This document shows, piece after piece, positions 7,599 to 64,000 of a stretch of 64,000 bases of DNA. Made by a program: the position numbers and the translations under genes. Origin of the DNA: Thermoproteota archaeon (GTDB lineage Archaea; Thermoproteota; EX4484-205; JAAOZP01); assembly GCA_049700215.1 (NCBI GenBank), contig JBNAVT010000001.1, positions 17,744 to 81,743 of the forward strand, read 5' to 3'. How positions within the stretch are numbered: the first letter of the stretch is position 1; the number at the start of each line of letters is the position of its first letter. The notes under the pieces are model-generated. The model had not been told where the DNA came from. It was given only the letters and a program-made list of their open reading frames with translations, and made no database searches.

Positions 7599-7665
7599 GT
7601 CCAACTGGTTTATTGATAATCTGCAAAATCGGAACTATTTTCTAAAAGTTTTCTCCATCCCATAG

Positions 7666-7812
7666 CTATAAGTTTTTGAAACCAAGCATCCTGTAAAACT
7701 TAACCGGAGCCCTGTTCTCTTTCAACACATTAAGCCTAACGGTTTTCACACCCCTAGCCTTCAGAGTTTTCAAGCTTTCAACAACCAGCTTCCTGCCTAG
7801 CGCGTGCTTTTT
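7666..7812 (-). pseudogene. GNAT acetyltransferase C-terminal remnant
   Basis: Minus-strand frame reads KKHALGRKLVVESLKTLKARGVKTVRLNVLKENRAPVKFYRMLGFKNL*, a GNAT motif A/B tail. Frames upstream to about 8030 are broken by stops and shifts, and no intact ORF exists. Confidence 0.4.
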
Positions 7813-8029
7813 GAAAATTCTCTATACGGTGCCTCAGAATTCGAAATATACATGGAGGGCTTCTCTTTACTATGGTGGGAAGCAGATAGGCCTCGGCATG
7901 GTTAGGATTTACATCTCCACAGAGCCTGAACTCTTGACGGGTAAAGTACTGGTAGGCAGGAAGGCTTTAAACAATAAAATAAGGTCGTTGATAATGAATA
8001 TGCTGAAAAGGCGAGTTCTTCTAGAGTTT

Positions 8030-8041
8030 TAGCACGCGCTA
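8030..8041. repeat. GCGC-core palindrome copy (tagcacgcgcta)
   Basis: Member of the TAGCGCG(Y)GCTA family described in findings. Confidence 0.6.
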
Positions 8042-8087
8042 AACCCTTGTATAAACCTGTTCGACATCTTATGGCTGTTAAATAAAA

Positions 8088-8113
8088 CTTTTAATAGCAC
8101 GCGCTATTAAAAG
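8088..8113. promoter_or_regulatory. 26-nt palindrome immediately upstream of the Cys-rich ORF
   Basis: cttttaatagc-acgc-gctattaaaag has perfect 11-nt arms and ends 4 nt before the ATG at 8118. It contains TATA-like ttaata/tattaa and the tagcacgcgcta core. Confidence 0.5.
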
Positions 8114-8117
8114 TTGG

Positions 8118-8888
8118 ATGAAAAAAGAAGGAACCAAAGTTTTAACACTTATGGTTCTCAGTTTTCTTCTTATCCCTTTTTTTAATTCTGACATACGGAT
8201 TAGGTATAGATGCAGAAACTGTAGCGTAGGCTCTTCTCTATCTTTAGAAGTGGGTTCCACAGCTCCATTTGTCTGGAAGAAAATGAGAATACTTAAAGGT
8301 GAAGAAAGGAATATGCTTATCTCCAACATAATGAAGACCAATGACTATAAAATGGTGGCTCTCAGCTTGGAAAAACTAGGTCTTGAACCCCTCTTCGAAG
8401 AGGCTTGGGCAGTAGAGGTGTTAGAGGCTCGTGATGCGATACTGACCAGAACTTTAGGGGTTAGCGTTGAATTTCTTCGTAAATCTGATGGTTTTTCGCT
8501 TATCGCAATTTTCGTTCTGGAACCATATGCAAAATCGCTTGTTTACAGGTTTAACAAGGAGACGAACATGCTCAATCTGGTGAGTGGTACGATCGGCGGA
8601 AAGAACATCATCTTACCTTCAGAGGGACAAACTCTTTCATCATGCCCACCTTGCGAAGTTCTTGTGAGCGAGTGTGTATCGATCGATCTTGCCTGTGTTC
8701 TATTGCAATGCTATGACTGTTATGATGTATGCGAGATACCCACACCGGTTTGTGTCGGCTGCATCATCTTCTGGTGCGGCTTTGGTTCACTTTATCTTTG
8801 TTGCAACAGTCAGCTGGTCTGCAAACCTTGCGACCCGGCAAGTTGTTATTATGCGGAATGCATGGGTTGTCCAGGATGTGGCGGGTAA
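8118..8888 (+). CDS. secreted protein with extremely Cys-rich C-terminal tail (18 Cys in the last ~83 aa)
   Basis: N-terminal signal/TM MKKEGTKVLTLMVLSFLLIPFF. The tail SSCPPCEVLVSECVSIDLACVLLQCYDCYDVCEIPTPVCVGCIIFWCGFGSLYLCCNSQLVCKPCDPASCYYAECMGCPGCGG has many CxxC pairs. The gene is AT-rich. Confidence 0.7.
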   Translation: MKKEGTKVLTLMVLSFLLIPFFNSDIRIRYRCRNCSVGSSLSLEVGSTAPFVWKKMRILKGEERNMLISNIMKTNDYKMVALSLEKLGLEPLFEEAWAVEVLEARDAILTRTLGVSVEFLRKSDGFSLIAIFVLEPYAKSLVYRFNKETNMLNLVSGTIGGKNIILPSEGQTLSSCPPCEVLVSECVSIDLACVLLQCYDCYDVCEIPTPVCVGCIIFWCGFGSLYLCCNSQLVCKPCDPASCYYAECMGCPGCGG

Positions 8889-9511: not shown

Positions 9512-10084
9512 ATGGTTAAGCATGCTCTGAGGAGCCTGCTTTTAACAGTATTCTTCTCAGCATTCCTCGCGCTTCTCCCGCCCTGTTTAAGCCACCCGTT
9601 CAACAGGCCCACAGCCTTGGGGTCGCCTTCATCATACTCCTGGAGCAGCCTGAGCACGAATACCGTGACGATAACCTACTCTATCAGCGAGGAAGCGTGG
9701 TGCGGCGGGACAGGCTACCTCCACATTGACGCTAGACCCGGCCAGGGAACCTACGGCGACACTAAAGACGCTACTGCAAGGATAACAGTGCCGGAGGGCC
9801 TCGTAGCAGGAGTTTACGTTTGCGGCGATGACCGCAACCCTCCTCCAAACGGCTGGACGGTTCAGGATAAGTATCTCAGGATTGAGGTCGACGGGGCTAA
9901 GGTTTTCGAGCTCGGTAAGGAGTACTGGTGGGCGAAATGCTACTCTAAGGCCACTGTTCTAGGCCCAGGTACGCACGAGGTTAAGCTGACCATAGGCATC
10001 ACTGTTAAGGTTTCCTCGAACTACGAGGAGCGCGACATAGCCTACGCTGCGATGGATATCAGGCTAGCGCGCGCTATCCTTTAA
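9512..10084 (+). CDS. secreted hypothetical protein
   Basis: Start at MVKHALRSLLLTVFFSAFLALLPPCLS (signal peptide). The mature part is rich in beta-strand-like segments and has no known motif. Confidence 0.55.
   Translation: MVKHALRSLLLTVFFSAFLALLPPCLSHPFNRPTALGSPSSYSWSSLSTNTVTITYSISEEAWCGGTGYLHIDARPGQGTYGDTKDATARITVPEGLVAGVYVCGDDRNPPPNGWTVQDKYLRIEVDGAKVFELGKEYWWAKCYSKATVLGPGTHEVKLTIGITVKVSSNYEERDIAYAAMDIRLARAIL
10065..10076. repeat. GCGC-core palindrome copy (tagcgcgcgcta, perfect)
   Basis: Overlaps the last codons of the 9512..10084 ORF. The identical 12-mer recurs at 35819..35830. Confidence 0.7.
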
Positions 10085-10268
10085 GGGAAAGTACTTCGCC
10101 GATGATGAATGGAAAGATCAGTTTAAGGACGTTAGATATGGAATTCCTGTTGCCACTTTCATTAAAGTTGATGCTTTACCGAAGGCTTTGGCAGAGAAGA
10201 ATTTGGAAGGGATCATCGATGTTGCAGTAGATCCCGACTTTTATGAAAATCCCAACTATCAGCCATGA
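10068..10268 (+). pseudogene. start-less 3' gene fragment
   Basis: 66-codon open frame ...GKYFADDEWKDQFKDVRYGIPVATFIKVDALPKALAEKNLEGIIDVAVDPDFYENPNYQP*. It has no ATG/GTG/TTG start and begins inside the palindrome. Confidence 0.3.
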
Positions 10269-10426
10269 TCACTTGGAGAATAAAGCACCCATCCTCTTCT
10301 CCTTAATTTCTTCTCTTCCTTTCGTGAAAGAAAGATGTAGTTTATTGTGTGATTTGGATGGAAAGAATAGTATTGATATCCAGTATCCTCTACCCACCTA
10401 TTTATTTTCTTCACGGCCGAATCAAG

Positions 10427-10546
10427 GTTAAGAAAGTTGTGAAAAGTATAAATTTCAATAACATGCCCTTCACCCTTAAACTTAAAATGTACCTCGAAGC
10501 AATAACCCCACTTCTCTTCGGGCTTCAAGCTCGGGGGGATCTAATC
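10427..10546 (+). repeat. 120-bp dispersed repeat, copy A
   Basis: Near-identical to the reverse complement of 43121..43241. The only differences are a 1-nt and a 2-nt indel near one end. Confidence 0.9.
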
Positions 10547-10965
10547 CAGTAGGAGCCTTCCCTTTCCACTCTAACATTTTCTCAACTACATTAGTAGGCT
10601 GGAAGAAACCCCTAGAGATTCTACCAAGCTTCTTAACTAAGCCCGCTCCAACGCCTTCTTCTATTACGATATCCCAAATTTGGACGAGGACTCTTCGGAT
10701 CAAAGCAGGCTAATTCGTAATCTATCTCAGCGATCTTCTTTTTCATATACCTTGCCTCATGCTTCTTTATACGTTTTTTCAAAAGGGCACCCTGAGGGGT
10801 GTCCCATAACCTATCTTCCCAGTTCACTGCATAATCTATTTCTCCATTGAAAATCTTCTTAAGGATTTCTTCAGAGTTTAAATCAGAGTAGTCTTTGAAG
10901 AAATCCATCTCGCGAAGGAAATCGATTGAGCTTATGAAGCGTTTCTTTAGCTTAGAGTTCATCAC
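10482..10965 (-). pseudogene. frameshifted hypothetical gene
   Basis: Two overlapping minus-strand ORFs (10633..10965 and 10482..10703) read as one protein if a 1-nt shift near 10690-10700 is corrected. The C-terminus runs into repeat copy A. No family recognised. Confidence 0.3.
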
Positions 10966-11056
10966 GTAAAAAATTGTTGAGTAGGTTCTTAAGCATAACT
11001 GTCTGCACTATTACTTCCATCTCAATAAAGCAATTGCGGTAGTAGAAGTTAAGAAG

Positions 11057-20386: not shown

Positions 20387-20566
20387 CCGCTCGGTTTAAA
20401 ACTTGATTGCAGGATTTAAATCTACTGTAACCGGAATACTGGATTTTCTGGCCGCTACCGGGGCTCATCCTTCTCCAGGGACCTTGAGAAGAGGTTGAGG
20501 GTGTGTTGATAAAAAATAAAAACATATAACCGTAAAATTTATATATTCCGAGAGGTTTGTGCCCAC

Positions 20567-20812
20567 ATGGTTAAAACAACGATAATTCTGGACGATGAGC
20601 TTTACAAGAAGCTTGTTCAAGAAGCCTTGGAGAAGTATGGGACGACGAAAAAGCTTTCTAAACTCATAAACGAGAAGTTGAGGGGTGAGGATGTTTGGAA
20701 AGCGCATAGAAAGGAGAGGCTTAGGATAAGGCTTGGGAAGGATCTTAAACGGGAGGATATTGAGAGGCTTATTGAAGACGGTTGGAGGGAGATAGTGAAA
20801 TGGAGGCCGTGA
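20567..20812 (+). CDS. vapB: VapB-like antitoxin
   Basis: VKTTIILDDELYKKLVQEA N-terminus. Overlaps the downstream PIN gene. A TATA-like aatttatata lies about 20 nt upstream. Confidence 0.6.
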   Translation: MVKTTIILDDELYKKLVQEALEKYGTTKKLSKLINEKLRGEDVWKAHRKERLRIRLGKDLKREDIERLIEDGWREIVKWRP

Positions 20813-21186
20813 TTGATACGAACGTACTGGTCTACGATACTTTCGAAGACTCTGTCTATCATAAGGATGCGGAGAGCAGGCTCTCTAATCTTAGGAAATG
20901 GGTTATTCCAACAGTTGTACTTGAAGAGTTCGTGATTGTTTTACTTCAACTTAAGATAGAAAGGAGCTTCATCAGGGAGAAATTGCTGGAGCTTCTTGAG
21001 GACGATAGGGTGGAAGTAGTCCCGCTTTCTAGACAAAACTTTCTAGACTCTGTTGGCATGATTTCGAGGGAGAACGTTTCTTTTAAAAGGTTAAACGACA
21101 AGCTTATAGTTTCTGTCGCTAAAGCAAGAAGACTACCGGTCTTAACGTACGATAAAGAGCTTAAGAAGGAGCGTCAAGCATCGTAA
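20800..21186 (+). CDS. vapC: VapC PIN-domain toxin
   Basis: MEAVIDTNVLVY..., VLEEF, LNDKLIV acidic PIN residues. Confidence 0.75.
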   Translation: MEAVIDTNVLVYDTFEDSVYHKDAESRLSNLRKWVIPTVVLEEFVIVLLQLKIERSFIREKLLELLEDDRVEVVPLSRQNFLDSVGMISRENVSFKRLNDKLIVSVAKARRLPVLTYDKELKKERQAS

Positions 21187-21526
21187 AAACTCATGGTCTT
21201 TCCCAAGTATGCAGCATCTGTTGAGCCCTTGGTTCTCCTTGTCTGGAGCCCTCCATAGAGCAACGCTTTCTCTGAAACCCTATGACTAAAGGCTTAAGAC
21301 TGGTTTTCAACTCTGATCTGTCGGAAAAGCACTGGGATAATCTTCCTAAGTATCTAGCCTCTTCCAAGTCTTAAAGCCGGTCTCCAGCATGCAACCAGCC
21401 TGAATTGTTTTAGCACGAATGGGCAGCGTTAGGCAGTAAGTTTTAGTAAAACAGGATTTCCATAACCAGAGTAAAGAGTTTGAAAAATCTTTAAAGCTAC
21501 AGGCTGTTCAAAAGCAAGTTTGAGAA

Positions 21527-58806: not shown

Positions 58807-60020
58807 AACAGTTTCCTCAAAGCCTCCGCAGGGTTTTCACCGGGGTTGATCACGAGCTCAGCATAGGGCTTTATGTCGACGCTCGGATCCTTCAAGCCGT
58901 GTCCAGTCGCCACGACGACGATTGTTTCATCACCCTTAAAGAACCCTTCTTTAGAAAGCTTAGCCAAGCCCGCCACAGGGGCTGCTCCAGCCGGCTCCGC
59001 GAACAAGCCCTCCATCCTGGCGAGGTCCACCTGAGCCCTCAATATTTCACGGTCGCTCACAGTAACCGCCGTCCCCCGGGAGTCTCTAATCGCCTTCAAC
59101 GCTTTTTTCCATGAAAACGGCCTTCCGATTCTTATTGCTGTTGCAACGGTCTCAGGCTTCTCAACAGGCTCTATAGTTTCCTCTCCCCGGAGGTATGCTT
59201 TTGCTATCGGGGCGGCTCCCTCAGCCTGAACCCCTATCATCCTCGGCTTAGACTCCGCCAGCCCGGCTTCAACAAGCTCTTTAAAACCCTTCCAGCCTGA
59301 AGATATGTTGGCAGCGTTTCCAACAGGGTATACGACGAAATCCGGCGTGTGGTTCAAGCCCTCCCATATTTCGAAGGCAACTGTCTTCTGGCCTTCAATC
59401 CTATACGGGTTCACTGAGTTTAAAACGTAAACCCCAAGCTCCTCTCTGTGGGAAAGAAGTGTTTCCAAAGCTTCGTCGAAGTTCCCTCTGACCCTGACTA
59501 CGGTGGCCCCGTGGGCAACAGCCTGGAGAAGCTTCCCGGGGGCAACGTAGCCGTCTGGAAGGAAGACGAGGCTTCTCAAGCCAGCTCTTGCCGCGTAGGC
59601 TGACATTGATGCTGAAGTGTTGCCTGTTGAAGCACACGCTACGCTCCTGGCGTGGAACCTGAGGGCTATGCTGACGGCGACAGTCATACCCCTGTCTTTA
59701 AAAGAACCAGTTGGATTAGCTCCCTCAAACTTGACGTAGAGGCTTCTCAAGCCCAAGTATTCCCCAAGCCTTTCAGCCTTAATGAGGGGAGTATCACCCT
59801 CACCTAGCGTGACGATTCTCCCAACCCTGGGAAGGAGGCTCCTATACCTCCAAACACCCCTGCCGTTGAACGAGACGCTTCTGAAGACACTCCTAGGGTA
59901 AACAACCTCCAAGAGGCCTCCGCACCTCCCGCATACAAGCACGCCTCCCCCGGGCGCATGGGTTGCGCCGCAATCCATGCACACCAGAGCCTCGTCACCC
60001 TGATACTCCATTACGCGCAT
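58803..60020 (-). CDS. thrC: threonine synthase
   Basis: N-terminal Cys4 ribbon CMDCG...CGRCG and PLP motif GANPTGSFKDRG. Confidence 0.95.
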   Translation of the reverse strand: MRVMEYQGDEALVCMDCGATHAPGGGVLVCGRCGGLLEVVYPRSVFRSVSFNGRGVWRYRSLLPRVGRIVTLGEGDTPLIKAERLGEYLGLRSLYVKFEGANPTGSFKDRGMTVAVSIALRFHARSVACASTGNTSASMSAYAARAGLRSLVFLPDGYVAPGKLLQAVAHGATVVRVRGNFDEALETLLSHREELGVYVLNSVNPYRIEGQKTVAFEIWEGLNHTPDFVVYPVGNAANISSGWKGFKELVEAGLAESKPRMIGVQAEGAAPIAKAYLRGEETIEPVEKPETVATAIRIGRPFSWKKALKAIRDSRGTAVTVSDREILRAQVDLARMEGLFAEPAGAAPVAGLAKLSKEGFFKGDETIVVVATGHGLKDPSVDIKPYAELVINPGENPAEALRKLL

Positions 60021-60075
60021 ACTCGCCTCCTCAGAGTTTTAAGCTTTAATAGTTCTCAGCATGGAAAAATGGCTG

Positions 60076-60642
60076 ATGAAGCTAGTGTTCATAACGGGGA
60101 ACCCTGGGAAATTCCTCGAGGCGAGGAGGCTGCTTGAAGAATACGGGATAATTCTTGAACAGGCCGATGTTGAAGTAACAGAGCCGCAGACAGATAGCCT
60201 GGAGGAGGTTGCTGAGAAATGCGCTGAGGAGGCTTTGGAAAAAATTGGTGAAAGCTTCCTAATCGAGGACTCCGGGCTATTCGTAAACTCTCTAAACGGC
60301 TTCCCAGGAGTATACTCCTCATACGTCTACAGGAAAATAGGCTGCGAAGGAATACTCAAGCTTCTCACAGGCTCAGCAGACAGGTCAGCATACTTCATGA
60401 CGGCCCTAGCCTACGGCGAGCCAGGCAAAGGCGTCAAGATATTCACCGGAAGAGTCGACGGAACAATCGCAACAGAGCCACGCGGGAAAAGCGGGTTCGG
60501 TTATGACCCCTTATTCATCCCTCTGGGCTCTAATCTGACTTTCGCGGAGATGAGCACTGAGGAGAAGAACAGGTTTTCCCACAGGGCTAGGGCGTTGAGA
60601 AGCTTTGCGTCATGGTTTCTGAGCAGGCATGAGGAAAAGTAG
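60076..60642 (+). CDS. non-canonical purine NTP pyrophosphatase (ITPase, RdgB/HAM1)
   Basis: FITGNPGKFLEA, EDSGLFV, GFGYDP, SHRARA. Confidence 0.9.
   Translation: MKLVFITGNPGKFLEARRLLEEYGIILEQADVEVTEPQTDSLEEVAEKCAEEALEKIGESFLIEDSGLFVNSLNGFPGVYSSYVYRKIGCEGILKLLTGSADRSAYFMTALAYGEPGKGVKIFTGRVDGTIATEPRGKSGFGYDPLFIPLGSNLTFAEMSTEEKNRFSHRARALRSFASWFLSRHEEK
60575..60620 (+). repeat. direct repeat, left copy (ITPase 3' end)
   Basis: Aligns gap-free with 63515..63560: 16 identical nt, 19 nt partly diverged, 11 identical nt. Confidence 0.8.
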
Positions 60643-61738
60643 GTGTGGCGTCTCGTGTAGAGACTGCCATTATTACGATTACAGACAGCTATGCCCAGGA
60701 TGCGCGATTGAACGTTGTCTCGTAGATTCGTGTCTAAGGGGCATTTCTTTTTCAGGTATTACATACCCCAAATCGTTCTGCAAGTTAAGAGCATATTGTC
60801 CTATTGGAGGGATGCCGAGACCGTTTCCAGTCCTACTTCCCCAATTAAGGAAAAAGGATATGCTTAGGATTAATTTTCCGTCATTCATTCCTCAAATCGA
60901 TATATGGAATCGTGAATCATGGTTTTGGATAGAAGGGGTAGATGCACCTGCTGTTTTTGTACCCCTCTGGCAACTGATTTTTAATAGTAGTTTAATATCA
61001 GAGGCTTCACGTAAAGGTCTTCACGATTTTCTCGGCTTTAATGGAAAAATATTGTTGTCTACGGTTATGCCTGACGAGCTTATTGATAGACTTACAAAGG
61101 ATGATTACTTTAAGCTGATTAAAGAATTAAGACCCGATGCCACAATGATTCCCGATAACTATACTTATGTTGACGCTCCATTATACCAATCTTGGTCTCA
61201 AACTATGCGGTTAATATCGTTTGCAAATGATTTTCTAGATCTCGATATCCCGTTAATCGGCTTAATCAAGGGTGCAAATCTGCGCCAAATCTACGTATCG
61301 CTTAAAAGTGAGGTTGAAATGAATTATGTTTCATTTGTTATGCCTGCGAGAGAACTTTTTGAGCAGGGCTTGTTAAATGATCTTCTTTCTCATGTGTTAA
61401 TCATGTTAAAGAGGTTGGGTAGAGTTAATAATAAAAAACTTGAAATACTTATTTACGGGGTTGGACGAAAGCTTGGGTACAAAGGGATGAGCTATAGTAA
61501 TTTTTCATGGTTTCTTGAAGCCAAACATGGTCTTTATTTTCGAGACGGCAAATTATACGATATGCGTGACGAGAAAATAAGATTTAGGGAGTGTTATTGT
61601 GATGCTTGCGAAGGCAAGATGCCACAGGACCTTATCAATCTATGGGTGGAAAATTCAGAATCTTGTAGAAGAATACTGGCTCTTCATAACCTGCTGGATT
61701 GGCTGAGGAGAAGTAAGAGTTGGGTGGGGGCTCTTTAA
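60629..61738 (+). CDS. TGT-fold (tRNA-guanine transglycosylase / DpdA-like) protein with N-terminal Cys cluster
   Basis: C-terminal ECYCDACEGKMPQDLINLWVENSESCRRILALHNL is CxCxxCx25H, the TGT zinc-site spacing. Alternating beta/alpha pattern upstream. N-terminus CGVSCRDCHYYDYRQLCPGCAIERCLVDSC. Confidence 0.6.
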   Translation: MRKSRCGVSCRDCHYYDYRQLCPGCAIERCLVDSCLRGISFSGITYPKSFCKLRAYCPIGGMPRPFPVLLPQLRKKDMLRINFPSFIPQIDIWNRESWFWIEGVDAPAVFVPLWQLIFNSSLISEASRKGLHDFLGFNGKILLSTVMPDELIDRLTKDDYFKLIKELRPDATMIPDNYTYVDAPLYQSWSQTMRLISFANDFLDLDIPLIGLIKGANLRQIYVSLKSEVEMNYVSFVMPARELFEQGLLNDLLSHVLIMLKRLGRVNNKKLEILIYGVGRKLGYKGMSYSNFSWFLEAKHGLYFRDGKLYDMRDEKIRFRECYCDACEGKMPQDLINLWVENSESCRRILALHNLLDWLRRSKSWVGAL

Positions 61739-61949
61739 TAGATCAGCATAAATCAAGGTTCCGGGAGGGAGACCAGGTTCTAACAGAACGGAAGGAAGAA
61801 TGGGAAGAATGCCGTAAAGAGGCCTATAGCGAGGTGAAGGAATTCGGTGAGTATAAAGTGGCATAACAGAAATTGGAGAATATGAGCTACTTAAAGGAAA
61901 TATCGTTATCTCAACGTTTGTAGAGGCAAGAATAGAAGAAGATAGGATT

Positions 61950-62638
61950 TTGTTTCCTTTGAGCCATGGAACCCTATTAGAAATCTCTTTTAGTGGGATT
62001 AGAGAAATTCTTACTCCTGAGAAGGCGGAATTATGCGGCCTTATAGCTGCAGAAGGCAGCTTATCTCCCTATGAAGGAGAGTCTCGCCAAATCTTCTTTC
62101 ACTCTGCAGATATGGAACTTATTGAAAGGTATATTGAGTTGTTCGAGAAGATTTATAACAAAACTCCGCATATTTACCAAGGTAAGGGCGAATTTATTGC
62201 GGGAATAAAGAATAAAGAGGCATATTACGATCTGAGGGAGATCGGGGCTAAACCGGGCCTTACAGGTACCACGTTCCTTTAAAACATTTAGACGAAGAGG
62301 GTGTTAAGGCATATTTAAGAGGGTTTTTCTCTGGTGATGGAAGCGTAGCAAGGCATGGAAAGTATTCGATTAAACTTAGAATATCCTCAAAGTACGGGGA
62401 TTGCCTAGAGGAGATAAGAGAGGCTTTGGTGAAGATTGGTTTTCAGCCTTCTGAGGTTCGTCTGGATAAGACTTATGGGACACATTATTTGGAGATATAC
62501 GCTCAAGATCGGATAAGGTTTATCGAAGAAATAGGAAGCTATAACCCTGCACATGTAAAGAAATTCGAAGAATTCTTAAAAGCGTATGAGGAGGATAAAT
62601 TAAAGGGAGGAAGACCAAAAAGGAATGATGACAAATGA
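61950..62638 (+). pseudogene. double-motif LAGLIDADG homing endonuclease with one frameshift
   Basis: Motif 1 LCGLIAAEGSL (ORF 61950..62282). Motif 2 YLRGFFSGDGSV lies in frame +2, open from 62252 and continuing into ORF 62426..62638. The shift is in ccgggcc around 62253-62259. Confidence 0.7.
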
Positions 62639-63336
62639 GTAAAATCACTGTTTGGGGATGGGGTGATAAATATGAGGCTGCCAGAGTCAATAGTGAAGCA
62701 TGCGTTGAGAAGTTTTGGAGAGAAGCAACTAAAGAGTGTCGAATAGCTTTAGTGGGTAAAGATCGGCGTGAGGGCATGATTTTTGGAATTGATGTTTACA
62801 CGGATGATCCGAAGAGTGTCGGATTTTTAGTGGAAAGACTACTAAACCTAGTCCTTACAAGAAAAAATAAGGTTTACGAAATTACAATAGAATTTCTTAC
62901 GGAGGAAGTCTCTTATAAGGGACACTTGAAAACACTTGAGGAGATAGAGAAACAGTACGAAACCCTGGCAAGTATATGTATCGAGAAAGTTAAAGACGAT
63001 CCGCGGGTGAAACCATTAACCGGCGGAAGGAGAATACTGGTCTTCCCGGATATGAGCTTATTTATCGAGCTTGAACCCGGGTACGGATTAAGGATGAAGG
63101 TGGGAGTCTTCCACTTCAATTTCGATGAGATGCTTAAATTCATCCAATTACTATCAGAGGATTTGATTAAAAGTAAACTGGCTAAGCGTATTTTAGGTTA
63201 TGGACTTTCGTTGGACATAGATAGGCTCGAGATTTCTGATGTTGATGTTACTGATGATGAGGTTCTGGTGGATCTTGCAGTGTCCGAGTCCGAAAATCTA
63301 ACACTCATTAGTTTTGATTACCATTATTATGATTAA
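62635..63336 (+). CDS. hypothetical 233-aa protein (acidic C-terminus)
   Basis: ATGA overlap with the LAGLIDADG ORF. No recognisable motif. Confidence 0.5.
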   Translation: MSKITVWGWGDKYEAARVNSEACVEKFWREATKECRIALVGKDRREGMIFGIDVYTDDPKSVGFLVERLLNLVLTRKNKVYEITIEFLTEEVSYKGHLKTLEEIEKQYETLASICIEKVKDDPRVKPLTGGRRILVFPDMSLFIELEPGYGLRMKVGVFHFNFDEMLKFIQLLSEDLIKSKLAKRILGYGLSLDIDRLEISDVDVTDDEVLVDLAVSESENLTLISFDYHYYD

Positions 63337-63513
63337 AAGAGTTATGTACATTCTATAGATAAGGTCAAATAAGTACTATATTTTCACTTTAATCGGTATT
63401 GTCACACTCATCTCCGAAAGCAATGCCATTGTCCCTACCTGCCTCAACATAATCCATGTAAATAATGTTCACATCCCTGTCCATATGGTGCGCATGACCC
63501 TTATTAGCGCGTG

Positions 63514-63600
63514 CTTTCCCACAGGGCTAGAGCTTTAAGAGCATTCGCCTCATGGTTTCTTAATGAGAAAATCGCGCGCGCTATCCTTTTTCAACCGTAA
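63514..63600 (+). pseudogene. displaced, start-less ITPase 3' end
   Basis: Reads LSHRARALRAFASWFLNEKIARAILFQP*, compared with the ITPase tail FSHRARALRSFASWFLSRHEEK*. Confidence 0.7.
63515..63560 (+). repeat. direct repeat, right copy
   Basis: See 60575..60620. Flanked by GCGC-core motif copies at 63505..63515 and 63574..63583. Confidence 0.8.
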
Positions 63601-64000
63601 GCTTAGCGTGGGGCCCGTTGAGAATGATCTTCAACTTGTTGAGCATCTTCCTGCCGATTACAATATCCTCGACGAGGTCTGGGGCAGACAGGGGTACAAA
63701 GATTTCGTTCAAACCCAAGTCGATTATACGGTTAGCTTCTTCAGATATTAGGAATACTGGGAGCTCGAAAACTTCTCCCTTAATCAAGTGTCCAGGAGCC
63801 TCCATCTGCCTTGTGGAGACCGGCTTAAGGTTAAGGAGGAACTCTGCCAGTTCAAAGTTGGAGTATAAGGCCCCGTCGAAACCCGTGTCGACCAGACCCT
63901 CCACTATGGCGGCTTTACGTAAGTCATGCCTGACTATGAGAAGGCTCATCACAGGTATATCGGGTAGTTTAAAACCGTCAGACAGGACCCCGTCTTCATG
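63581..64000 (-). CDS. retropepsin-like aspartic protease (may extend beyond the window)
   Basis: LVDTGFDGAL (DTG active site) and IVIGRKMLNKLKIIL. The frame stays open upstream of the GTG at 63952 to the window edge. Confidence 0.6.
   Translation of the reverse strand, partial: HEDGVLSDGFKLPDIPVMSLLIVRHDLRKAAIVEGLVDTGFDGALYSNFELAEFLLNLKPVSTRQMEAPGHLIKGEVFELPVFLISEEANRIIDLGLNEIFVPLSAPDLVEDIVIGRKMLNKLKIILNGPHAKLTVEKG

Follow-up and report, generated by a model that had tools for sequence, protein, structure and literature searches.

The DNA considered here is a window of 64,000 nucleotides (nt) from a Brockarchaeota-like archaeon of the Thermoproteota (contig JBNAVT010000001.1, positions 17,744 to 81,743). 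Window positions 60621-63346 hold a copy of a small (~2.7 kb) element that has been passed on vertically and has partly decayed. The element belongs to a family found in Brockarchaeota and has three genes, the open reading frames ORF1 and ORF3 with a LAGLIDADG endonuclease gene between them. Members of this family lie at the 3' end of a target gene, which is a tRNA gene in most cases and the ITPase gene in the lineage of the window. One end of the insertion retains the target intact, the other has a partial 3' copy of it (hereafter the ghost), and no known recombinase is encoded. All sequences compared are metagenome-assembled genomes (MAGs) or metagenome contigs, and individual loci are referred to by L numbers. 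A first-pass annotation of this DNA had proposed an integrated element with a replacement 3' end, a proposal now supported by empty sites, by composition and by occurrence of the module at multiple loci. The best overall explanation, to which we give about an even chance, combines this three-gene family with a recombinational integration that is triggered by the endonuclease and imports the replacement 3' end.

Insertion polymorphism at the ITPase locus

The locus has common flanks in relatives, with thrC, homoserine dehydrogenase and aspartate kinase on the left and rpS15 and a RecJ-like gene on the right. Between them the element is polymorphic: the site is empty in L002 and L004, full in the window, L081, L091 and L084, deleted in L001 and reduced to a remnant in L115. 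The empty alleles, which the first-pass annotation had suggested looking for, consist of the ITPase gene, ~130 nt and rpS15, in the same thrC/homoserine dehydrogenase/aspartate kinase synteny. L081 carries a full cassette, 87% identical to window positions 60380-63346, with an intact LAGLIDADG gene of 267 amino acids (aa); rpS15 follows this cassette directly, with neither a ghost nor the protease-like gene found in the window. L001 is an internally deleted copy, in which the first ~290 nt of ORF1 are fused to the last ~250 nt of ORF3, and the solo remnant L115 lacks, relative to the full copy L091, precisely the segment that lies between two perfect 33-nt repeats. In L084 the cassette lies between the copies of a perfect 135-nt direct repeat (135/135), which covers ITPase codons 149-192 and starts inside codon 149.

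A further arrangement is seen in L120-L122, whose host has ~0.6 G+C and a broken ITPase of its own (46% identical). The order there is host codon ~87 plus an internally deleted tail, ~700 nt of unknown DNA, a complete window-like ITPase (83% identical), the cassette, and host codons ~149-189. The disruption of the native gene in this high-G+C host can be followed at L120 692-946 and at L121 3-278, 970-1536 and 4312-4434. Judging from this arrangement, the host apparently relies on the foreign ITPase that arrived with the cassette.

In the window the displaced tail is a start-less frame (63514-63600) that translates to LSHRARALRAFASWFLNEKIARAILFQP followed by a stop. The two copies of the repeat (DR1-L and DR1-R, Table 1) align without gaps at 38 of 46 nt; in shuffled flanks (n=200) the best 46-nt diagonal gave 24.8±1.0 matches and a maximum of 28, placing the real repeat 13 standard deviations (sd) above chance. 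Both the 46-bp imperfect repeat and the start-less tail copy had been reported in the first-pass annotation, and they are confirmed by the shuffle and by the reading frame, respectively. The repeat ends on a homologous codon in L121 (...KWL) and in the window (...WFL), and the last ITPase codons of the window, after ...SWFL, come from element DNA. Tail and ghost share 17 codons, eight of them changed and six of these eight synonymously, which implies that both copies diverged while encoding a working tail, as expected if one of them was imported. Similarity proved uninformative for picking the native tail, the ghost being 77-85% identical to every fetched ITPase tail. Gapped alignment aimed at lengthening the ghost upstream was ambiguous; the sole remaining hint is a 12-nt match by eye, only suggestive, of 63489-63500 (ATGACCCTTATT) to ITPase codons 148-152, after which filler AGCGCGTGC follows.

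The body of the element stands out by composition, with a G+C content of 0.396 (400-nt windows, 60650-63400) versus 0.511±0.039 elsewhere in the window, and a tetranucleotide L1 distance of 0.451 versus 0.199±0.032 (maximum 0.313) for other 2.7-kb chunks, a difference of ~8 sd. The AT-richness first noted from hand counts is thus borne out by computed profiles. The left end of the body, GAGCAGGCATG, matches GAGCAGAAATG, which comes right after the repeat in L084, and the right end is the point where homology to L081 stops. The insertion had initially been drawn from 60575 to 63600; the insertion as such stands, and its right border has to be moved, since the body homologous to relatives stops at 63346. 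As initially described, the genes are co-oriented and overlapping, by 14 nt between ITPase and ORF1 and by 4 nt between LAGLIDADG and ORF3, and the start of ORF1 at 60629 sits within the last ITPase codons. An inner direct repeat (ORF1 codons ~6-29) comes after the ORF3 core in the elements of this locus (window 60662-60708/63316-63346; L081 284-337/2947-3000; L091 6034-6066/8687-8719; L115 6030-6075). Together with L115 it indicates either precise loss by recombination between the copies or a second attachment site.

The element genes have synonymous divergence (Ks) similar to that of the ITPase, and their ratios of nonsynonymous to synonymous divergence (Ka/Ks) are low, at 0.13-0.15 for ORF1, 0.13-0.19 for ORF3 and 0.105 for LAGLIDADG (~0.10-0.19 overall) against 0.11-0.13 for the ITPase. 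Such values imply long co-divergence under purifying selection, and the element of the window is old and co-diverged with its host, not a recent arrival.

The element family and its three proteins

The three-gene module occurs at other loci too, as the first-pass annotation had suggested checking. More than 100 cassette loci were found (34 genome loci and 80 of 162 metagenome matches), nearly all with ORF1, LAGLIDADG and ORF3 in this order, and MAGs contain several copies, about nine in one case. ORF1 paralogues within a MAG are 60-81% identical and same-site copies across MAGs 83-91%, so that each lineage is tied to its own site. Flanking direct repeats of 31-137 nt are present in 18 of the 52 complete copies for which flanks were available. 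A tRNA gene detected by ARAGORN adjoins 17 of the 52; this is a lower bound, because the program misses many tRNAs here, which probably contain introns. The adjoining tRNAs are those for Leu (four anticodons), Ser, Val, Arg, Glu, Gly, Met, Ala, Thr and Trp. Where repeats could be read, they are tRNA 3' halves (L090, L092, L096, L097 and L106, among others) or the ITPase 3' part, with the intact gene at one end and the partial copy at the other.

Both orientations of the cassette occur, even at one and the same tRNA-Glu(CTC). The partial tRNA copy of L090 has a different, fully paired T-stem that is identical to the intact allele of L092, indicating that the functional 3' half was replaced. Import of a replacement 3' end is accordingly supported by three comparisons, namely the perfect repeat of L084, the synonymous changes in the window and the L090 allele. 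Tandem arrays are common, and so are remnants left by earlier copies (L148, L151, L159, L164 and L177, and an ORF3-end remnant left of L096); ORF3-to-ORF1 junctions are present in L148, L151 and L164, contigs that are compatible with a tandem array or a circle alike. One complete cassette beside an archaeal-type tRNA-Ser (L085, JBMFNR010000018.1, 2950 nt) is binned as the bacterium Fervidobacterium, most likely a binning error. At the putative cut in the ITPase of the window (60503-60514) the sequence GGTTATGACCCC agrees with GGTTCGAATCCC, the consensus of the tRNA T-arm, in 8 of 12 positions, a likeness that may hint at how a tRNA-targeting lineage gained a protein-gene target.

ORF1 has the fold of a tRNA-guanine transglycosylase (TGT). 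Its AlphaFold2 (AF2) model (predicted local distance difference test, pLDDT, 84.7) finds ArcTGT 1iq8 as its top Foldseek match (E 2e-12, TMq 0.64), with bacterial TGTs also among the top matches, and the family profile matches ArcTGT by sequence (E 1.7e-7); the Cys-rich N-terminal domain is conserved and poorly modelled. The zinc motif CxCxxC...H is kept (C322, C324, C327 and H353, nearly invariant). Three active-site aspartates, acting as general acid/base, in base binding and as nucleophile, are invariant in TGT and DpdA (PMC10164549). In a hidden Markov model (HMM) profile alignment, ArcTGT D95 corresponds to an invariant Ser144 and D249 to a conserved Ser290, and the base-binding D130 is kept as Asp176. 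ORF1 therefore has the TGT fold and would fail a defining catalytic feature, and the loss of two of three invariant aspartates makes base exchange doubtful. Its 140 homologues are all unnamed and come chiefly from Thermoproteota/Brockarchaeota MAGs, and its match to the PADLOC TGT model is weak. A distant ORF1 branch of 280 aa at L203 6001-9562 (Ga0315280_10000032) is followed by proteins of 526 and 381 aa, without LAGLIDADG or ORF3; the 526-aa protein has faint, PD-(D/E)xK-like matches of TnsA-like/CdiA-tRNase type (E 0.02-0.04).

The LAGLIDADG enzyme had been noted as the only nuclease aboard. Its family assignment is upheld (PF14528), and the gene in the window, with motifs LCGLIAAEGS and LRGFFSGDGS, proves to be a pseudogene, broken relative to the intact L081 gene by 1-nt deletions at 61860 and 62250, both in homopolymer runs; three assemblies give identical broken gene calls. 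The two frameshifts mean that the window copy can no longer promote its own spread. Across 47 intact family copies the acidic residues of both motifs are conserved. The gene is free-standing, with no Rfam intron or other RNA family match in 59500-64000, and an intron or intein was rejected on the same absence of Rfam matches and on the duplication of the target tail.

ORF3 is modelled with confidence (AF2, pLDDT 89.8) as two alpha+beta halves, and its last ~14 residues, encoded by the DR2-R remnant, are disordered. No significant fold match was found in PDB or BFVD, and 1.84 billion representative proteins yielded just 73 matches, of 232 aa at most. The idea that ORF3 is a hidden integrase or an HUH enzyme was rejected: the best template-modelling (TM) score in PDB/BFVD is at most 0.26, Rep/NS1 proteins score 0.10-0.16, and there is no conserved His-x-His. 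Rejected as well was a split "suicidal" SSV-type integrase formed by ORF3 and ORF1, as in the tRNA-type elements ORF3 ends with a stop codon of its own ahead of the repeat, and ORF1 begins at its own conserved start.

Table 1. Features at and around the ITPase-locus element (window coordinates)
Feature	Position	Strand	Description and evidence
ITPase (Ham1), integration target	60061..60642	+	Pfam PF01725, E 1e-54; synteny with thrC/homoserine dehydrogenase/aspartate kinase in L001, L002, L004
DR1-L, left direct-repeat copy	60575..60620	+	ITPase codons ~172-187; ends exactly at element start
Element body, ~2.73 kb, AT-rich	60621..63346	.	87% nt identity to L081 over window 60380-63346; L084 junction; GC/tetranucleotide profile
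ORF1, 369 aa	60629..61738	+	TIM barrel, tRNA-guanine transglycosylase fold, with Cys-rich N-terminal ~75 aa
DR2-L, inner repeat, left copy	60662..60708	+	within ORF1 codons ~12-27
LAGLIDADG endonuclease pseudogene	61720..62638	+	Pfam PF14528, both halves; tblastn in two frames
ORF3, 233 aa, orphan alpha+beta protein	62635..63336	+	always together with ORF1 and LAGLIDADG
DR2-R, inner repeat, right copy	63316..63346	+	shortened in window; 54 nt in L081; perfect 33 nt in L091
AT-rich spacer without homologue	63347..63514	.	no match in any fetched locus
DR1-R, right direct-repeat copy	63515..63560	+	displaced ITPase ghost tail; ghost frame 63514-63600
(GC)n run	63573..63583	.	directly 3' of the ghost's ATGAGAAAATCG; similar AGCGCGCT filler at L001 and L107 deletion junctions
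Clan-AA aspartic-protease-like gene, outside element	63581..64000, running on to 64027	-	NCBIfam TIGR03698, E 2e-5, below cut-off

Mode of integration and alternative explanations

The family has the target-derived repeats and the empty site of elements moved by tyrosine or serine recombinases, and a recombinase gene was not found in the libraries searched. No block ORF matched a recombinase or transposase in Pfam, NCBIfam, PHROGs or PADLOC, or Cas1 in Pfam or NCBIfam, and the absence of an integrase initially noted for the window holds in these libraries for the whole family. Nor was an integrase present among the neighbours in L116 and L199-L203, within 6-10 kb of the elements; whole MAGs were not screened for helper integrases. 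A transposon or casposon does not fit, as the element has no terminal inverted repeats, its repeats are long and variable and no transposase or Cas1 match exists. A viral or plasmid origin was rejected: ORF1 had no match in IMG/VR or PLSDB and ORF3 none in the phage collection, and no copy was found nested in a larger element, virus or plasmid. Full-text literature searches returned no description of such a cassette.

In the cut-and-repair model that we favour, the LAGLIDADG endonuclease would cut the target gene of an element-free genome, in the ITPase at a putative site near codon 148/149. The break would be repaired from element DNA carrying its own functional copy of the 3' part of the target; the cassette would be copied or integrated by that repair, and the native 3' part, from the cut onward, would be displaced downstream as the ghost. 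ORF1 and ORF3 may act as accessory factors in target recognition, protection or end handling. Such a mechanism would explain why the ghost starts at a fixed point (codon 149 in L084, ~149 for the host ghost of L121 and possibly 148 in the window), why the two tails have diverged synonymously and how the L090 allele arose. It would also explain how a whole ITPase came to move with the cassette into a foreign host (L121) and why the nuclease gene decays in long-resident copies.

Several points weigh against this explanation. Simple homing predicts no target duplication, and after integration the intact target would still have its cut site, barring protection by a modification or by the imported allele. 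The two repeat copies of L121 look host-like (GC-rich) and enclose an AT-rich insert, a picture easier to reconcile with the target itself having been duplicated than with a copy brought in by the element. ORF1 and ORF3, both conserved, have no assigned role in a model built on the endonuclease, and a detectable repeat is present in only about a third of the complete copies. Helper integrases may lie elsewhere in the MAGs, as the integrase negatives cover neighbourhoods only, and the evidence comes wholly from MAGs and metagenomes. It is more tentative, and to us possible rather than probable, that the family represents an autonomous new class of archaeal element, which would insert into the 3' ends of tRNA genes and protein genes and restore them with no need of a tyrosine or serine recombinase, a transposase or Cas1, using a LAGLIDADG nuclease, a re-purposed TGT-fold protein (Ser for catalytic Asp) and an orphan-fold protein.

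Among the alternatives, the cassette could be non-autonomous, with a tyrosine integrase of SSV or pNOB8 type acting in trans on attachment sites in tRNA or ITPase genes and the three genes being cargo, e.g., a defence or addiction module. The architecture of the repeats, formed by the 3' part of a tRNA gene that stays whole on one side, is just what archaeal tyrosine integrases produce, and tandem arrays do occur (L148, L151, L164). Gene content and order, however, are uniform over 35-60% protein divergence and at least 10 targets, and the attachment of each lineage to its own site would call for a matching set of helpers. No integrase was seen within 6-10 kb of five elements, nor any copy nested in a larger element, virus or plasmid; we consider this explanation unlikely.

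Somewhat less likely still is that ORF1 and/or ORF3 performs site-specific integration and excision as a new recombinase, LAGLIDADG serving only as a helper or DNA-binding factor. The two proteins match the nuclease in degree of conservation and are always found together with it, and ORF1 keeps the base-binding Asp and the zinc site; its invariant Ser144 (general acid) and conserved Ser290 (nucleophile) at the catalytic positions suggest altered rather than lost chemistry. The exact difference between L091 and L115, the DNA between perfect 33-nt repeats, also looks like precise excision, although homologous recombination between the repeats explains it equally well. Moreover, the TGT fold is without precedent in recombination, and ORF3 has no fold relative (HUH-type matches at TM 0.10-0.16, no HUH motif).

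A small chance, below that of a new recombinase, is left to a selfish pair resembling a restriction-modification (R-M) system, in which the endonuclease hits unprotected targets, the TGT-like protein protects the resident DNA by modifying or binding a guanine, and the unit inserts with a long target duplication. Bacterial R-M units free of mobility genes and flanked by target duplications provide a precedent (PMC2853133). The weak match of ORF1 to the PADLOC TGT model, the protein with a faint PD-(D/E)xK-like match in place of LAGLIDADG in the distant branch L203, and the host-like repeat copies of L121 point the same way. Against this stand the two missing aspartates out of the three invariant in TGT/DpdA, together with the synonymous changes and the L090 allele, which indicate an imported rather than a duplicated 3' end. 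Finally, the idea that no insertion took place, and that a conserved host operon lies behind the ITPase beside a chance repeat, would suit the long vertical co-divergence, the agreement of ORF1 and ITPase Ks and the purifying selection, but it is refuted by the empty sites L002 and L004 and the tRNA-flanked paralogues, is at odds with the deleted copies, the many copies at unrelated loci with target-gene repeats, the outlying composition and a repeat 13 sd above chance, and has a close to negligible probability.

Relation to known systems and neighbouring features

With SSV- and pNOB8-type integrative elements the family shares integration at the 3' ends of tRNA and protein genes, target-derived repeats, a restored target, tandem arrays and decayed remnants. 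It differs in having no known integrase, a size of ~2.7 kb, three fixed genes and repeats of up to 135 nt, and in that its lineages use the same tRNA-Glu in both orientations. The "intronless homing" of the phage T4 seg/mob genes offers another parallel, with a free-standing nuclease gene between conserved genes, a likely cut in the neighbouring gene, co-transfer of the donor flank and decay of the nuclease gene after fixation. Unlike seg/mob, the present element comprises two further conserved genes and leaves part of the target duplicated; it resides in the chromosome of an archaeon, occurs in multiple copies at many tRNA genes, and encodes LAGLIDADG rather than GIY-YIG/HNH.

Low-G+C bacterial R-M units without mobility genes are flanked by target duplications of >30 bp, including one 46-bp repeat that overlaps a gene 3' end and one case involving a tRNA gene (Furuta et al. 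2010, PMC2853133). That survey took inserts <20 kb with a target duplication >30 bp and no other mobility genes, and it contained no archaeal case (PMC2853133). The present element falls within these limits of size, duplication and gene content and is likewise low in G+C and nuclease-bearing. It differs in having no recognisable methyltransferase or restriction enzyme and in that its extra copy looks imported, not duplicated, in at least two cases. The nuclease that it does carry is a LAGLIDADG enzyme, and ORF1 is only a TGT-fold protein without the catalytic aspartates. Within the TGT/DpdA superfamily, ORF1 shares the TIM barrel, the CxCxxC...H zinc site and the base-binding aspartate. It is set apart by serines at the general acid/base and nucleophile positions, by the extra Cys-rich N-terminal domain, and by the lack of PUA or C-terminal tRNA-binding domains and of dpdB/dpdC partners.

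To our knowledge, known archaeal integrating elements use tyrosine recombinases, Cas1 or transposases. A conserved multi-copy family with tRNA-type scars and none of these enzymes implies either endonuclease-driven integration with 3'-end replacement or an unrecognised recombinase. The TGT fold would thereby gain a role outside base exchange, and the family would supply natural LAGLIDADG enzymes that probably recognise tRNA genes. A class of duplicated gene tails and partial tRNA copies seen in genomes of Brockarchaeota also finds its explanation here, and both intact gene sets and matching empty target alleles are present in public assemblies.

The right side of the window element is complicated, which probably reflects serial insertion events, as in the tandem arrays and remnants elsewhere. 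A GC-alternating palindrome (AGCGCGCT or (GC)n) coincides exactly with three independent junctions at which these elements are internally deleted or truncated (L001 6827-6834; L107 6755-6761; window 63501-63509 and 63573-63583). It looks like filler DNA and could be a footprint of hairpin opening. The two GCGC motifs first noted at the right junction look like deletion-junction filler rather than recombination sites, and enrichment of GCGCGC in the window is weak (19 observed versus 11±3.5 expected). Just 3' of the ghost, window positions 63563-63577 (ATGAGAAAATCGCGC) encode MRKSR, the first five residues of ORF1, with other Ser and Arg codons; this stretch may be left over from the beginning of an earlier copy that has since been deleted, or may be due to chance.

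The protease-like gene (148 aa) is convergent with the ghost tail. On the species' own contig L116, which is identical to the window over the 5 kb compared, a ribbon-helix-helix (RHH) gene and then rpS15 come after it, and neither the protease-like gene nor the RHH gene belongs to the element. The protease-like gene is absent from all fetched relatives, and the pair that it forms with the CopG-like RHH gene, between ghost and rpS15, occurs among them only in the species of the window (from 63581 in the window to ~64274 on CAZIZW010000008.1; L116 10947-11640). The pair may be a toxin-antitoxin-like insert. Other low-G+C islands of the window (0.375-0.425), at 7600-8600, 10000-11000 and 20400-21200, have no relation to the cassette; in the first lie the genes of a 144-aa membrane protein and of a 256-aa protein whose C-terminus is very rich in Cys.

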